Shown in pieces: positions 25,953 to 50,178 of a stretch of DNA of 64,000 nt. The notes beneath the pieces are model-generated. The model made no database searches and had not been told where the DNA came from. It saw only the letters and a list, made by a program, of their open reading frames with translations. The translations under genes were made by a program, and so were the position numbers. Numbering within the stretch: position 1 is the stretch's first letter; the number at the start of each line of letters is the position of its first letter. Origin of the DNA: Parcubacteria group bacterium Licking1014_17 (lineage in GTDB: Bacteria; Patescibacteriota; Minisyncoccia; 2-02-FULL-40-12; IGHO2-01-FULL-4-A); NCBI GenBank assembly GCA_007376485.1, contig VMGJ01000002.1, forward strand, positions 15,134 through 79,133, in the 5' to 3' direction.

Positions 25953-26079
25953 CATGTGCACTGAGCTTGTCGAAGTGCTCCACACTGTGGACGACGTTAG
26001 AACCAGAACACAGAAATCCACGGGGTATATTCACATACCAAACATAGCTTTTTGATTTTGTCCTACCCTTTCACAACCA

Positions 26080-29383: not shown

Positions 29384-29409
29384 GGGAAATTTAAAGTTTT
29401 CTGGAAATA

Positions 29410-29476
29410 GGACTCGAACCAGAAAAGGTGAATAAAATAAAGGAAAGCGATTTTTGACAGGAATTGGACTGGAACC
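29410..29476 (-). repeat. Two degenerate copies of a tRNA 3' end (T-arm/acceptor), candidate att-site remnants.
   Basis: GGACTCGAACCAGAA at 29410 and GGACTGGAACCAAGA at 29466, against the genuine T-arm/acceptor at 29583..29593 of the adjacent tRNA. Confidence 0.45.
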
Positions 29477-29505
29477 AAGAGCTGATTGCGCCAGAACACG
29501 AAACT

Positions 29506-29536
29506 AAAAAGTGCCAATAATATCGGCACTTTTTAG
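29506..29536 (-). terminator. Rho-independent terminator immediately 3' of the tRNA-Asn gene, with bidirectional shape.
   Basis: AAAAAGTGCCAATA-at-ATCGGCACTTTTT. Confidence 0.55.
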
Positions 29537-29571: not shown

Positions 29572-29908
29572 CTCCGGCGCCTGGACTCGAACCAGGAACC
29601 ATCTCCTTACACATAATCCATTACTTTCGTAGTGGGGTGGACTATATCTTACCCGTGTCCCGTTGTTAGCGGATTTAGGGTTTTCGGTATCTAGTCTCTA
29701 CGGTGTCCCCTCGATTCGGGCTCGCCCTGGGCGAGCTTGTCCTGAGCTCGTCGAAGGACGAAGCGAGTCGAAGGGTTCCCACGGTATTACCCATTCGCCT
29801 ATTGGCAAATTAGGGCTTCACCGTTATCCCGAAAAGTTTCAACCTAAGTTTCCTTAGGAAGCTGCGATAAATTCACAGGGAGCCGCTCTACCATTGAGCT
29901 ACGCCGGA
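29572..29908 (-). tRNA. tRNA-Asn(GUU) interrupted by a roughly 265-nt group I intron in the anticodon loop.
   Basis: The 5' exon (29908..29875) reads TCCGGCG-TA-GCTC-AATGGTA-GAGC-G-GCTCC-CTGT. The 3' exon (29609..29572) reads TAA-GGAGA-TGGTT-CCTGG-TTCGAGT-CCAGG-CGCCGGA-G. Joined, they give the anticodon loop CUGUUAA with a perfect 7-bp acceptor stem. The intervening 265 nt ends in G, follows an exon U, and contains the group I P7 motif GUAGAGACUAGA...AUAGUCC. Confidence 0.6.
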
Positions 29909-29940: not shown

Positions 29941-29986
29941 CCCTCGACCAGCTCGGGGCAAGCCCTTCGACAGGTTCAGGGCAAGC
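29941..29986. repeat. Two tandem units of the dispersed 23-24-nt repeat family.
   Basis: CCCTCGACCAGCTCGGGGCAAGC followed by CCTTCGACAGGTTCAGGGCAAGC. The same family occurs at about 25947, 29700-29770 (inverted, inside the intron) and 49532-49656. Confidence 0.6.
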
Positions 29987-31531: not shown

Positions 31532-32758
31532 TTAATATCCTTTTAATTTTTCAGATTTATGATGCTGGCGGATTTTTTCGAGAGCTTTGGCTTCGATTTG
31601 GCGGATTCTTTCGCGGGTGACGCCGAAAACTTTGCCCACTTCTTCCAGAGTATGAGTCACGCCGTCGGCAAGCCCGAAACGCATTTCAAGAATTTTTTGT
31701 TCGCGCGGCGAGAGGTCACTGATGATTTCTTTTAAGTGGTCGCGTAGGATTCTCCTGCCGGCGGTCATTTCGGGCGAAACCGAATCTTCGTCCGCCACAA
31801 AATCGGCCAAGAGCGAATCATCGCCGTCATCCCCTACCGGCGCCTCAAGCGATACGGTGTCCTGCGAGATTTTCATGATGTGCCGGATTTTATCAATATC
31901 TATATTCATCTCGGCGGCAACTTCCTCCGGCAGCGGCTCGCGCCCCAAATCCTGTATCAGCCGGCGCACCACTTGCTGGTATTTGTTTATGGTTTCAATC
32001 ATATGCACCGGAATGCGGATAGTCCGCGCCTGGTCGGCGAGGGCGCGCGTAATCCCCTGCCTGATCCACCAAGTGGCGTAAGTTGAAAATTTAAATCCCT
32101 TTTTGTAATCGAATTTCTCGACGGCGCGGGAAAGACCGATATTTCCCTCCTGAATCAAATCAAGCAGGGTTAGATTCGGGGAACGCCCGACGTATTTTTT
32201 GGCGATAGACACCACAAGGCGGAGGTTCGACAGCATCAGTTTCTGTCTTGCCGATTCGTCTTTCTTTTCAATGCGCTTGGCAAGTTCCGCTTCTTCATCG
32301 CCGGTCAGTAGCGGATATTTCCCGATTTCGCGAAGATACATTTGCACGGAATCCGAACCCGCCTCCAGCTGTTCGGTTTCCAGTTTTTTCTTTTCCTCGT
32401 GTTCCTTGCCCATTCCTTCGGAAAATATCTTCCCGGTATCAAGGATGTTGATGTTGGCGGCTTTCAGCCTTTCATAAAGATATTCAATGCCCTTGACATC
32501 GTCTTCTACATTGGGAAAAGTGTGCAAAATCTCGTATTCCGTGATAAAACCGCGGTGCCTGCCTTTGTCTATCAGGCGTTCAATCATTTCTTCGGCAACA
32601 ACCTGCCTTTTGTGCCTTTTTGCGGGCGCGTTTTTCATCGCCGCCTTTGAAGCGGTTTTTTTTGATATTTTTTTCTTCCGAGCCGGCTTCCTTGTTTTCC
32701 GGGCTTTCCTTGCCGTTCCCGCTTTCTTTTTTTTCTTGGGGCGTGATTTTTTTGCCAT
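31532..32758 (-). CDS. rpoD: Primary sigma factor RpoD with an N-terminal Lys/Arg-rich extension.
   Basis: Contains regions 1.2 to 4, including [27 protein letters not shown] and [21 protein letters not shown]. Confidence 0.9.
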
Positions 32759-32796: not shown

Positions 32797-34611
32797 TTAT
32801 TGGACCAGTTCTTTGGTGAGAGAAGAAAATTCCGCCAGTAATTTAGCCAGTGAAGTTTTGTCGCATGCCTTCTCGGCTCCTTTAATATCATACTCGAGAG
32901 AACCGAGTTTTGCCATAATCCCCTTTCTCTTTATGTGGCAAAGGATATTTTTGAATTCCTCCTCAAGGTGCTCTATGTTCCTGTCCTTCCACAATTCGTC
33001 GGATTTCAGATAAGCAACTTCGATATTCATCGAAATCGGGCTGAACACCGGGTTTCCGGTCAAAGTTTTTACGGCCCAATCGGGCCTATCTTTTTTTACG
33101 GACTCGTCGCCCGCCATAATTTTCAGATGTTCGGCAATGCTTTTGAACGTAGAGGATAAAAACGGAATCGCGGACTCGGGTATTGAGCCGGCTAAGCATG
33201 GCTCTTTTATCAGCAAAGAAATCAAATCCTCTTCAGCCGGGCTTAAAGCGCCGGTAACTTCATGGGCGGTAACGGCTTCCCCCTTCGCCTCCTCGGGCGT
33301 ATAGCTTCTTCGGGCCTTCACATTTGCCAGCTCGCTGTAAATAAAATCATCTTTTACTTTAAGCGCCAAAGCGGCTTCAGCCACCCAGTGAGACTGCTCG
33401 ATTTTATTCGCGATTGACGCCACTAATGGCAATATTTTTTGGGCGAACAACTTTTTCCCCAGAGCAGTTGAAGTATCAAAAACCTTTTTTGATAAATCAA
33501 AAAAGTACGCCATGAACGGCACCGATTTTGAAGCAATCTCCGTCCATCTATCTCCGTATTTTCTTACGTAGTCGGCAGGGTCCTTAATACCTTCTTCGTC
33601 TATTGGTATAACGCCCACGTTTAACCCATGTGACAAGGCAAGGTCAACGCCGCGTTCAAGAGCTATGGCTCCGGCGCTATCGGCATCAAAGCACAAATCA
33701 AGATTGTCGGTGTATCTCTTTATAAGACGAAGCTGGCCATCGGTAAAGGCGGTTCCGGATGATGCGACGGAGTTATCCGCACCCGCCTGATGGGACATAA
33801 TGACATCCATATTACCCTCAACCACCACACAGCGCCCTTTCTGCCTTATCGCCATTTTAGCGTGGTTTAATCCGTAAAGAATTCTGCCTTTGTCATAAAT
33901 CGGTGTCTGTGGGCTGTTCACATATTTCGCCGGGGTTTCCCCCGCCGCTGTGTCTTTACTACCGGTTTCAAAAACTCTGCCGGCAAAACCGACTACTTGG
34001 CTGTTTAGGTCGAAAATCGGAAACATTATCCGCGAGCGGAAACGGTCGTAGTCTTCCCCGCTATTTTCCCTTCTTACGCTCAAACCGGCATCCCGGATTT
34101 CATTACTGTTGAATTTCCTGCCAAGAAAATCTTTAAGCGAACGCCAGCTGTCGGGTGCGAAACCGAGCCGGAATTTTTCTATGGACTCACCGGTAAGTCC
34201 CCTGCCGTAAAGATATTCAAGCGCGCGCTTGCCTGTGGCTGATTCATGAAGCTGTTTTTCAAAAAACTTTGCTGAAAGCTCGCAGATTTCGTAAAGGCGC
34301 GATTTAAGATTCTGGAATTCCGGACGGACGGGTTCAAGCTCCACTCCGGCGCGCGCCGCCAGAATTCGCAGAGCTTCGGGAAATTCCACGCCTTCAATCT
34401 GCCTTATAAAACCAAAAATATCCCCGCCCAGCCCGCAACCGAAGCAATGCCAAATCTGTCTTTCGGGAGAAACAAAAAATGAGCCAGTTTTCTCGTTATG
34501 AAACGGGCACCGGGCTTTGTAATTAATCCCCGCTTTCTGAAGTTTGACATAGCCGCCAATAAGCTCAACTATATCAACCCTGTCTTTGATTTTAGAAATA
34601 TTGTCTTCCAC
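32797..34611 (-). CDS. dnaG: DNA primase DnaG.
   Basis: Has the CHC2 zinc finger (CPFHNEKTGSFFVSPERQIWHCFGCGLGGD), a TOPRIM domain (VVVEGNMDV...DADSAG), and a C-terminal helicase-binding region. Confidence 0.9.
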   Translation of the reverse strand: MEDNISKIKDRVDIVELIGGYVKLQKAGINYKARCPFHNEKTGSFFVSPERQIWHCFGCGLGGDIFGFIRQIEGVEFPEALRILAARAGVELEPVRPEFQNLKSRLYEICELSAKFFEKQLHESATGKRALEYLYGRGLTGESIEKFRLGFAPDSWRSLKDFLGRKFNSNEIRDAGLSVRRENSGEDYDRFRSRIMFPIFDLNSQVVGFAGRVFETGSKDTAAGETPAKYVNSPQTPIYDKGRILYGLNHAKMAIRQKGRCVVVEGNMDVIMSHQAGADNSVASSGTAFTDGQLRLIKRYTDNLDLCFDADSAGAIALERGVDLALSHGLNVGVIPIDEEGIKDPADYVRKYGDRWTEIASKSVPFMAYFFDLSKKVFDTSTALGKKLFAQKILPLVASIANKIEQSHWVAEAALALKVKDDFIYSELANVKARRSYTPEEAKGEAVTAHEVTGALSPAEEDLISLLIKEPCLAGSIPESAIPFLSSTFKSIAEHLKIMAGDESVKKDRPDWAVKTLTGNPVFSPISMNIEVAYLKSDELWKDRNIEHLEEEFKNILCHIKRKGIMAKLGSLEYDIKGAEKACDKTSLAKLLAEFSSLTKELVQ

Positions 34612-48030: not shown

Positions 48031-50178
48031 TTATTTTACCATCCTCAAAAACTCCCCTTCCGAGATTATTTTCACTCCCAGTTTTTTGGCTTTATCAAAT
48101 TTTGAGCCCGGTTCGTGGCCGGCGACGACATAGCTGGTTTCCTTGGATATCGACGATAAGGCGTCGCCGCCATTTTCGCGGACGAGTTTTTCGGCATCCT
48201 CGCGAGTAATGGTATCAAGCGAACCAGTGAAGATGAACGACAGTCCTTTCAATTTCTGCGATTTTTGCGATTTGCTTTGCGCCAGCACTTTCACCCCGGC
48301 TTTTTTGAATTTTTCCAAAAGTTTTTTGCTGTATGGTTTTTTGAACCACTTATAAATTTCTTCAGCCGTAACATCACCGATGTCTTTTATTGAATTCAAT
48401 TCTCCGGCTTCGGCACCGGCGATTTTTTCGATTGTGCCGAACTGGCGCGCCAAATCAACAGCCGTTTCAATGCCTACGTGCGGAATCCCCAAACTGAAAA
48501 CAAATCTATCCAGCGTCACGGTTTTGTGCGACTGAATGGCGCCAATTGTATTTTCGGCGGATTTGTCGGCAAATCTTTCCAGGTTCATCAGGTCTTCTTT
48601 TTTTAATTTATACAAATCAGTAACATCCCTGATTAAGCCGGCATCAACAAGCTGGTCAATTATTTTCGGACCGACACCGTCTATATTCATCGCTCCTTTG
48701 GAAACAAAATGATACATATATTCCCTTTTTCTCGCTGGACAGTTCTCGTTGACGCATTTGTGCGCGGCATAACCCTCTTCCCTGACAATCGCGCCCTCGC
48801 AGGCGGGACATTTTTTGGGAAAATGAAATTCTTTTTCCTTGCCAGTTCTCAATTCCTTCAAAACTTTTTTTATGTCCGGAATGACATCGCCCGCCCTTCC
48901 GACAACCACCGTATCGCCTATTTTCACTCCGAGCCGTTTTATTTCATCTTCGTTGTGGAGGGTGGCGCGCGATATCGTTGTCCCGCCGATTTCCACCGGC
49001 TCAAGCACCGCTACCGGCGTGAGCGTTCCGGTACGCCCGACGCTGACAATGATGTCATTCAATTTTGTCGTTGATTCGCGTGGAGAAAACTTGTAAGCAA
49101 CAATTGCTCTCGGTGCTTTGCCGATAATGCCCAGCTTTTTTGACATTTTATTGTCGTTGATTATTACAACCGTGCCGTCAATTTCATAAGACAGCTTTTC
49201 GCGGTGTTTTTCCCAGTAGTCGCGGAAACCGCCGACTTCGTCAATCGTGCGGCAATATTTATTGTTTGGATTGGTTTTAAAACCAAGCGCCTTGAGAATC
49301 AGATGCTCCTCTTCATGGGTTTCCTGCCCGAAATTTGTGAGCAACGAATACGCGTACGAATCAAGTTTGCGCGAAGCGGTCAGTTTGGGGTCAAGCTGTC
49401 TGATGGAACCGGCGGCAAGATTGCGAGGGTTTTTATAAGTTGCCTCTCCGGCTTTTTTCTGTTCGGCGTTCATGCGCTCAAATTCTTTTTTGCTCAAAAA
49501 AACCTCACCTCTCACAATAATTTCTTCCGGCAGCCCCTTCGACAAGCTCAGGGCAGGCTCCTTCGACAAGCTCAGGGCAGGCTCCTTCGACAAGCTCAGG
49601 GCAGGCTCCTTCGACAAGCTCAGGGCAGGCTCCTTCGACAAGCTCAGGGCAAGCCCTTTTTCCCCCATTTCCTTCAAAAATTCTTCTCTGCTATTCAACT
49701 TCAGCGGTATGGCTTCAACTGTTTTCAGGTTTTGAGTAACATTTTCACCGATAAAACCGTCGCCGCGGGTGGCGCCGACAGCCAAGCTCCCGTTTTTATA
49801 AATCAGCTCAATCGCTAAGCCGTCTATTTTTAATTCGCAGAAAAATCCGGAATCAATAGCGCGGCTATCCAATCTTTTTACGCGGTCTATCCAGTCGTTT
49901 AAATCATCTTTATTAAAAACATCATTGAAAGAAAGCATCCTTCCCGGATGGGTAAACTTTTCAAATTTATCCAACGGCTTGCCGGCAACGCGCTGGGTCG
50001 GCGAATCGGGGGTCACGATTTTTGGGAATTGCTGCTCTAAATCAAATAGTTCCTTTTTGAGCGAGTCCTCAACCGATTCTTCGATTATCGGCGCGTCCAA
50101 AACCAGCCGGTGATAACGGTATTTATTGATTAAAACCCTTAATTTTTCAGCCCTTTGAGCGGCTTCTTTTGTGGTCAT
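48031..50178 (-). CDS. ligA: NAD-dependent DNA ligase LigA, carrying an in-frame (EPALSLSK)x5 insertion.
   Basis: Has the KxDG adenylation motif region (ELKIDGLAIEL), the OB domain, a Zn finger (CPACEGAIVREEGYAAHKCVNENC), an HhH domain and a BRCT domain. The protein is 715 aa. Confidence 0.9.
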   Translation of the reverse strand: MTTKEAAQRAEKLRVLINKYRYHRLVLDAPIIEESVEDSLKKELFDLEQQFPKIVTPDSPTQRVAGKPLDKFEKFTHPGRMLSFNDVFNKDDLNDWIDRVKRLDSRAIDSGFFCELKIDGLAIELIYKNGSLAVGATRGDGFIGENVTQNLKTVEAIPLKLNSREEFLKEMGEKGLALSLSKEPALSLSKEPALSLSKEPALSLSKEPALSLSKGLPEEIIVRGEVFLSKKEFERMNAEQKKAGEATYKNPRNLAAGSIRQLDPKLTASRKLDSYAYSLLTNFGQETHEEEHLILKALGFKTNPNNKYCRTIDEVGGFRDYWEKHREKLSYEIDGTVVIINDNKMSKKLGIIGKAPRAIVAYKFSPRESTTKLNDIIVSVGRTGTLTPVAVLEPVEIGGTTISRATLHNEDEIKRLGVKIGDTVVVGRAGDVIPDIKKVLKELRTGKEKEFHFPKKCPACEGAIVREEGYAAHKCVNENCPARKREYMYHFVSKGAMNIDGVGPKIIDQLVDAGLIRDVTDLYKLKKEDLMNLERFADKSAENTIGAIQSHKTVTLDRFVFSLGIPHVGIETAVDLARQFGTIEKIAGAEAGELNSIKDIGDVTAEEIYKWFKKPYSKKLLEKFKKAGVKVLAQSKSQKSQKLKGLSFIFTGSLDTITREDAEKLVRENGGDALSSISKETSYVVAGHEPGSKFDKAKKLGVKIISEGEFLRMVK
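49532..49656. repeat. Five tandem copies of a 24-nt unit (CCTTCGACAAGCTCAGGGCAGGCT) inside ligA.
   Basis: The repeat is in frame. It encodes EPALSLSK x5 on the coding strand and SFDKLRAG x5 / LRQAQGRL x5 in the shadow frames. It belongs to the dispersed repeat family. Confidence 0.8.

Follow-up and report, generated by a model that had tools for sequence, protein, structure and literature searches.

Background

Nakagawa et al. (2026, mSystems; PMC13011429) described group I introns inserted at 35/36 of tRNA-Asn(GUU) genes in Patescibacteria, with tRNA-Tyr(GUA) as a further host at the same position; reported insertion sites elsewhere include 34/35 in tRNA-Leu and 33/34 in tRNA-fMet. One Asn and one Asp intron were found to self-splice accurately in vitro, as judged from sequenced spliced products, and a mutant in which the terminal G was changed to C lost exon ligation. 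Long members carry HNH endonuclease genes. Covariance models placed 25 of the 28 introns at 35/36 in subgroup IA and no Patescibacteria tRNA intron in IC. Annotation tools missed such genes or mis-called them as Thr(UGU) or Ala(UGC), and tFind work cited in the same study had earlier listed them as 'Asn.4Ug'. Among the sequences of that study compared here, a compact-type tRNA-Asn intron occurs in Table S3 (GCA_030583765.1; core ...CGUAGAGACUAGAUACC...), and the tested Asp intron (GCA_001029755.1), which spliced in vitro, is likewise compact.

Peripheral helices of such introns can acquire repeated sequence. Kaasalainen et al. (2015; PMC4476775) describe a P6b stem-loop built from repeats in the group I intron of Nostoc trnL(UAA).

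We have analysed a 64,000-nt stretch of DNA from Parcubacteria group bacterium Licking1014_17 (hereafter, the window). It is highly probable, judging from the sequence and its relatives, that a tRNA-Asn(GUU) gene in the window is split between U35 and U36 by a compact, ORF-free, self-splicing group I ribozyme. The intron type is already described; the peculiarity of the present locus is an unusually long P6 hairpin built from a dispersed repeat.

Methods

In order to find relatives, a search pattern that joins the 3' core of the intron to the G|UAA 3' exon was run against a collection of species-representative genomes. Covariation was assessed in 16 short introns of compact architecture (the window and 15 others), onto which P1 to P9 were mapped from the window.

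Results and discussion

The interrupted tRNA-Asn gene

Coordinates of the gene, intron, helices and repeat copies are collected in Table 1. The 5' exon (UCCGGCG UA GCUC AAUGGUA GAGC G GCUCC CUGU) and the 3' exon (UAA GGAGA UGGUU CCUGG UUCGAGU CCAGG CGCCGGA G) join into a 72-nt cloverleaf with 7/7 acceptor, 4/4 D-stem, 4/5 anticodon-stem and 5/5 T-stem pairs. The spliced tRNA has the loop CUGUUAA, a discriminator G and, in the anticodon stem, a G27.A43 mismatch that is also present in several relatives. ARAGORN reads the spliced product as tRNA-Asn(gtt). Coordinates, cloverleaf and ARAGORN call bear out the claim of a first-pass annotation of this DNA that exons of 34 and 38 nt assemble into a tRNA-Asn with this loop, and its description of an intervening sequence of about 265 nt that follows an exon U and ends in G holds at 29874-29610. 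The intron begins with GAAUUU, is preceded by an exon U, ends in ...AUGUG and lies between anticodon nucleotides 35 and 36. CCA is not encoded, CAU being the bases directly after the tRNA 3' end.

A promoter scan recognised no sigma-70-like promoter upstream of the tRNA gene. Its one sigma-70-like match falls within the intron, and such matches occur at chance frequency.

Table 1. Positions of the interrupted tRNA-Asn gene, its predicted intron helices and the dispersed repeat copies in the window
Feature	Position	Strand	Evidence or remark
Interrupted tRNA-Asn(GUU) gene, 337 nt	29572..29908	minus	exon/intron reading and family data
5' exon, 34 nt, tRNA positions 1-35	29875..29908	minus	3' end C32 U33 G34 U35 (...CCCUGU)
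Group I intron, 265 nt, ORF-free	29610..29874	minus	omega G = 29610; RF00028 match, covariation, 88/88 conserved positions
3' exon, 38 nt, U36 A37 A38 to discriminator G73	29572..29609	minus	5' start UAAGGAG
P1	29861..29878	minus	exon CUGU (29878-29875) and intron GA (29874-29873) with guide UCGCAG (29867-29862)
P2 hairpin CCUAAG-GAAA-CUUAGG	29843..29858	minus	GNRA loop; compensatory changes in 6/6 pairs
P3 5' strand UUUUCGG	29829..29835	minus	pairs with CCGAAAA (29687-29681); compensatory changes in 5/7 pairs
P4	29781..29824	minus	29824-29820 with 29785-29781, around P5/P5a (29816-29789)
P6 with extended hairpin	29702..29780	minus	~50 nt (roughly 29767-29715) missing in closest relatives
P7 5' strand GACUA	29692..29696	minus	pairs with UAGUC (29644-29640); 5 pairs invariant in 16/16, an invariance that carries no covariation information
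P8 hairpin	29652..29680	minus	compensatory changes in 2/3 basal pairs
P9 hairpin	29618..29635	minus	GAAA loop, then AUUAUGUG as far as the terminal G
Repeat copy CCUUCGACGAGCUCAGGACA in P6 extension	29738..29757	minus (gene strand)	1 mismatch in 20
Two repeat copies, 33-75 nt upstream of tRNA 5' end	29941..29983	plus	antisense to intron copy
Repeat copy, intergenic	25957-25976	minus	
Five tandem 24-nt repeat units within ligA	49536-49651	plus	
Terminator-like hairpin, 15 pairs then U-run, 36 nt 3' of tRNA end	29504..29536	minus	such sites in the region number at chance level

Predicted fold and splicing pathway

In P1, C32-U33-G34 pair with G-A-C of the guide, U33 with A, and the splice site is marked by the wobble U29875.G29865, which is U.G in all 16 compact-class members. 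Across the same set, changes at the first intron base are matched by changes in the guide (GC in 7, CG in 6, AU in 2 and UG in 1). P7 forms a pseudoknot with P3. P5 contains a tetraloop-receptor-like internal loop (CCUAA.../...AUGG) and P8 an internal loop of the same type; the G and A that bound the GNRA loops on P2 and P9 are invariant in 16/16 compact members. Docking of these P2 and P9 loops in the receptor-like loops of P5 and P8 would, in the modelled structure, hold the compact fold together. A canonical P10, in which the 3' exon would pair with the guide, could not be drawn.

From this fold a conventional group I pathway can be proposed. C32-U33-G34-U35 and the first two intron bases would pair with the guide UCGCAG, presenting U35.G as the reactive wobble, while the intron folds into P2-P9, with P7 (GACUA/UAGUC) as the expected guanosine-binding helix. 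An external guanosine held at P7 would attack after U35; the terminal G29610 would then occupy the site, and the freed 3'-OH of U35 would attack after G29610, so that the exons are joined into the loop CUGUUAA and the intron is released. Processing of the 5' end (presumably by RNase P) and of the 3' end would finish the tRNA together with CCA addition, which would be needed because no CCA is encoded. By analogy with the related introns, we infer that the window copy itself splices.

Relatives and covariation

The search pattern matched at least 120 loci, mostly in Patescibacteria/CPR lineages with some in Omnitrophota and Elusimicrobia. Among the matches listed, 100 of 121 sequences (window included) have the layout of an acceptor UCC...GGA plus G73 with CUGU|intron|UAA, and in these 100 resolved genes the guide GCAGC is conserved, the intron ends in G without exception (100/100) and intron length ranges from 180 to 630 nt. 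The same gene layout is thus present in at least 100 species-representative genomes, mostly of Patescibacteria. Several published tRNA-Asn introns (GCA_016700035.1, GCA_016700015.1 and GCA_030583845.1, among the published sequences compared) have GAGAUAGUCC rather than GAUAUAGUCC in P7'; because the pattern misses introns with GAGAUAGUCC there, the family must be larger than the 100 loci counted.

Two architectures are apparent. Hairpins follow the 5' strand of P7, in the place of P7.1/P7.2, in 72/100 members among the matches listed; 20/100, the window included, are of a compact type in which GACUA is followed by 4 nt and then P3', and 8/100 are of neither type. The compact architecture also occurs in at least 120 metagenome contigs.

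Standard pairs fill 88.1% of cells in the alignment of the 16 compact members, vs 33-45% when the 3' partners are slid by 1-3 columns. Compensatory changes occur at 28 pairs, the helices richest in them being P2, P3, P6a and P9, and the observed covariation score was reached by none of 500 shuffles. The window agrees at 88/88 positions that 14 or more of the other 15 compact members conserve. Its spliced tRNA shares 97% identity with the tRNA of L040, which lies on an 888-kb chromosome of an uncultured bacterium, and the gene is adjoined by rpoD (67-73% identical at the DNA level), an arrangement seen in many Patescibacteria loci; together these observations make a Patescibacteria origin very probable.

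In the 120 fetched loci ARAGORN detected no tRNA-Asn gene free of an intron, and a BLAST search with the window gene produced no match in phage or plasmid collections. The interrupted gene is probably the only tRNA-Asn gene of its genome. To the published cases in which highly reduced Patescibacteria keep a self-splicing ribozyme in what is usually the only gene for that tRNA, the locus adds one more.

Several further features of the relatives were recorded. In the window the interrupted gene is adjoined by dnaG-rpoD (31532-32758 and 32797-34611), and rpoD lies within a few kb of an interrupted tRNA-Asn in many Patescibacteria loci (L081, L094, L103, L067, L065 and others), a conserved neighbourhood. 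The compact core also occurs in tRNA-Asp(GUC), at CUGU|CAC, in 13 metagenome contigs vs at least 62 with tRNA-Asn (L121-L240); both this host and tRNA-Tyr(GUA) at 35/36 would be explained by a guide that reads only C32-U33-G34-U35. Introns of 511-630 nt (L037, L056, L076, L078, L070, L093, L032, L075, L010 and others) have a conserved ORF of ~100-120 aa in the P1 loop, often with a TATAAT-like hexamer ahead of it; its motif CxxCGY...HH...CANCH would fit the published HNH homing endonuclease.

The Bacteroidales pattern matches (L004, L011, L028, L044, L050, L077, L080, L114 and L116) share one common 3' exon-like sequence and are probably false positives. ARAGORN finds an ordinary uninterrupted tRNA-Thr(UGU) in L004, L077 and L080; the tRNA-Thr gene of L004 is preceded, at a distance of ~22 nt, by GATATAGTC.

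Detection by Rfam and annotation tools

A sensitive local scan matched Intron_gpI (RF00028) to 29884-29618 over the entire model (1-253 of 253) with E 3.1e-9; the score, 42.2 bits, is lower than the 50 bits of the curated gathering cut-off. The group I assignment of the first-pass annotation is therefore supported by a full-length match, with the score falling short of that cut-off. Only 1 of the 15 compact relatives reaches 50 bits with RF00028; for three introns of the other class the scores are 84-100 bits. Because so few relatives of the same architecture reach it, a cut-off of 50 under-calls the compact class, and the sub-threshold score is a property of that class. An architecture that mostly lies below the cut-off is thus widespread. 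Other weak Rfam matches in the vicinity, with E 2-9, were to permuted tmRNA and lncRNA fragments and were set aside as chance.

Neither a default ARAGORN run nor Rfam at the gathering threshold makes a call at the tRNA-Asn locus, and these blank scans are what would be seen if a pair of tRNA pseudogene pieces, or an unrelated intron-like sequence, merely resembled an interrupted gene by chance. Against this stand the E value of the match across the whole model, at least 100 homologous genes with the same boundaries, and strong covariation, and we give a chance resemblance virtually no credence. On the comparative evidence, the interrupted tRNA-Asn gene is real and conserved, and very probably functional.

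Annotation with default tRNA and Rfam settings overlooks the gene, and a genome of this kind would be scored either as lacking tRNA-Asn or as having a spurious extra tRNA-Thr, which would distort completeness estimates of small uncultured bacteria.

Asn or Thr

A 7-nt anticodon loop, U at position -1 and G at the intron end together leave two phasings: Asn(GUU) with the intron at 35/36, and Thr(UGU) with the intron at 33/34, that is, 2 bases further 5' (...CU | GUGAA...AUG | UGUAAGG). The second phasing would make the gene a tRNA-Thr(UGU). It gives a 7-nt loop with the same two boundary bases, ARAGORN accepts the product as tRNA-Thr(tgt), and introns ending in GUG make the ambiguity common to most of the family (74/100 members among the matches listed). 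ARAGORN and tFind are documented to mis-call such genes as Thr (PMC13011429). ARAGORN takes almost any exon junction, and a scan over all phasings has no discriminating power.

The family itself discriminates between the two. In 26/100 members among the matches listed the intron ends in ATG, TTG or otherwise, and the shifted 3' site would be without its G. The register of P1, from the model alignment and our own helix assignment, places the invariant U.G wobble at U35. U1-A72, C2-G71 and G73 are constant in the family, whereas uninterrupted tRNA-Thr(UGU) genes of the fetched loci begin GC...; the U1-A72 and G73 combination is the same as in E. coli tRNA-Asn. L103 has a canonical tRNA-Thr(UGU) besides its interrupted gene. 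The sequenced in vitro products of related introns record excision at 35/36 (PMC13011429). The different tRNA that an alternative phasing could have produced, a point already raised in the first-pass annotation, is in this way excluded by family data, P1 register and identity elements, so that tRNA-Thr is left as a very improbable reading and tRNA-Asn(GUU) is retained.

Subgroup and comparison with described introns

The architecture of the intron bears on its subgroup. Subgroup IA is distinguished by P7.1/P7.2 between the 5' strand of P7 and P3'. In the window this hallmark is absent, since only 4 nt (GAUA) separate GACUA from P3'. Subgroup IC3, to which the introns of Azoarcus tRNA-Ile and of cyanobacterial and plastid tRNA-Leu(UAA) belong, has a compact core without P7.1/P7.2, in which the GNRA loops of P2 and P9 dock in receptor-like loops of P8 and P5. 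Relative to IC3 structures, the window intron is alike in being small, in passing from P7 straight into P3', in its GNRA loops on P2 and P9, in its receptor-like P5 and P8 loops, in its anticodon-loop site and in its proposed splicing chemistry; it is unlike the IC3 tRNA introns in its insertion at 35/36 rather than at the 34/35 published for tRNA-Leu.

The first-pass annotation had seen in the intron a close match to the P7 core of Azoarcus and cyanobacterial tRNA introns. The strings are where they should be (GUAGAGACUAGA at 29701-29690 and AUAGUCC at 29645-29639), and GACUA/UAGUC within them is P7. The subgroup likeness is not diagnosed by them, because AGACUA and GAUAUAGUC are both near the Rfam consensus of the whole family. 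A likeness to the Azoarcus type is reasonable as a statement about architecture, not as demonstrated membership.

With the introns of Nakagawa et al. the window intron shares the host tRNA, the insertion site, the CUGU|...G|UAA boundaries, the Asn/Thr trap and the host at phylum level. In the tRNA-Asn intron tested in that study (GCA_016700035.1), P7 and P3' are separated by an additional hairpin; the window intron is without it. The window locus was not found among the table sequences of PMC13011429 that were compared, and the dispersed-repeat motif of the window P6 is in none of the sequences of that study compared. The locus changes no concept.

The P6 extension and the dispersed repeat

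The variable part of P6 is 69 nt long, vs a median of ~20 nt in 120 listed metagenome members. It contains a copy of a repeat (CCUUCGACAAGCUCAGGGCAGGCU; unit 24 nt) that is dispersed in the window, where the motif CCTTCGACAAGCTCAGGRCA occurs 9 times vs 0 expected. Inverted copies of a 23-nt repeat had been claimed for the intron: one clear copy is present, inverted with respect to the plus-strand copies, and the opposite arm of the P6 hairpin consists of a degenerate partner in inverse orientation. The claim therefore holds in part, and the unit length is 24 nt. Folded on its own, the P6 extension gives a single uninterrupted hairpin (-39 kcal/mol) on the normal base of P6. The ~50-nt extension is a peripheral insertion derived from the dispersed repeat, which makes the hairpin longer and leaves the core untouched. 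No very close relatives of the window intron, with or without the P6 insertion, were found in the metagenome scan.

The nearest precedent is the Nostoc trnL P6b (PMC4476775), in which repeat-derived sequence likewise accumulates in the P6 peripheral hairpin with the core undisturbed. The Nostoc repeats are described there as intron-specific motif classes, whereas the window repeat is dispersed in the genome and is found in a protein-coding gene and intergenic DNA as well.

When the leader and gene are folded together (29995-29560), the upstream repeats are paired with the P6 extension in the structure of minimum energy, and native-like helices are kept in the centroid. The model hints that upstream repeats could pair with P6, if the leader is transcribed.

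These observations bear on whether the intron, though genuine, is crippled in this copy, with the P6 insertion or the upstream antisense pairing blocking folding and the gene a decaying pseudogene or one spliced conditionally. The length of P6 at the extreme of the family range, a minimum-energy fold in which pairing with the upstream repeats disrupts native helices, and the Rfam score below threshold could all be read in this way. The low score, however, is common to the whole compact class, P6 varies widely in length among members (11-68 nt), the extension folds by itself on a normal P6 base, the centroid keeps the native-like helices, and all 88 of the 88 class-conserved positions are intact. 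A crippled copy therefore seems quite unlikely, and the intact, self-splicing intron remains the preferred reading.

Copies of the repeat in other genomes were noted in homologous introns, in either orientation: L103 has the repeat in its P5 loop, and L079 and L008 have it in the loop of P1, with degenerate versions in P6 of L183, L206 and L087 and a full or degenerate copy in P6 of L226. Of the motif matches, 4/15 in the genome loci and 1/16 in the metagenome loci fall within introns, the latter vs ~0.8 expected; enrichment of the repeat in introns is unsupported, since the metagenome count is near expectation.

In the window the repeat is also found within ligA (ORF 48031-50178, minus; NAD-dependent DNA ligase), where the five units are in frame and are translated as (ALSLSKEP)x5. 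The alignment with E. coli LigA (2owo) covers residues 8-163 and 215-714 of the window ligase, which has ~51 residues where E. coli LigA has one, just before the EVRGEVF motif. Nothing relevant was found in the literature for the repeat peptide translations FDKLRA, LSLSKG and LRQAQG.

Speculatively, the repeat might be an actively spreading micro-element that is kept only where an extra hairpin or loop is tolerated, such as the peripheral loops of ribozymes (P6 here, P5 in L103, P1 in L079 and L008) and, in frame, a loop of the essential DNA ligase, and the antisense copies upstream could pair with the intron copy, so that the tRNA-Asn precursor would fold and splice only under certain conditions. 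We consider this idea unlikely.

Other observations

LOOT RNA (RF03000) scores above the Rfam threshold at L009 1-120 and at L013 7814-7918, in both loci at a distance of a few kb from tRNA-Asn. In the window, a hairpin, UUUUCUGG-UUCGAGUCCUAUUU-CCAGAAAA, lies on the minus strand at 29400-29432, ~150 nt downstream of the tRNA-Asn gene; it includes a 15/16 match to the T-arm of that gene, which may be accidental or may mark a piece of a tRNA.
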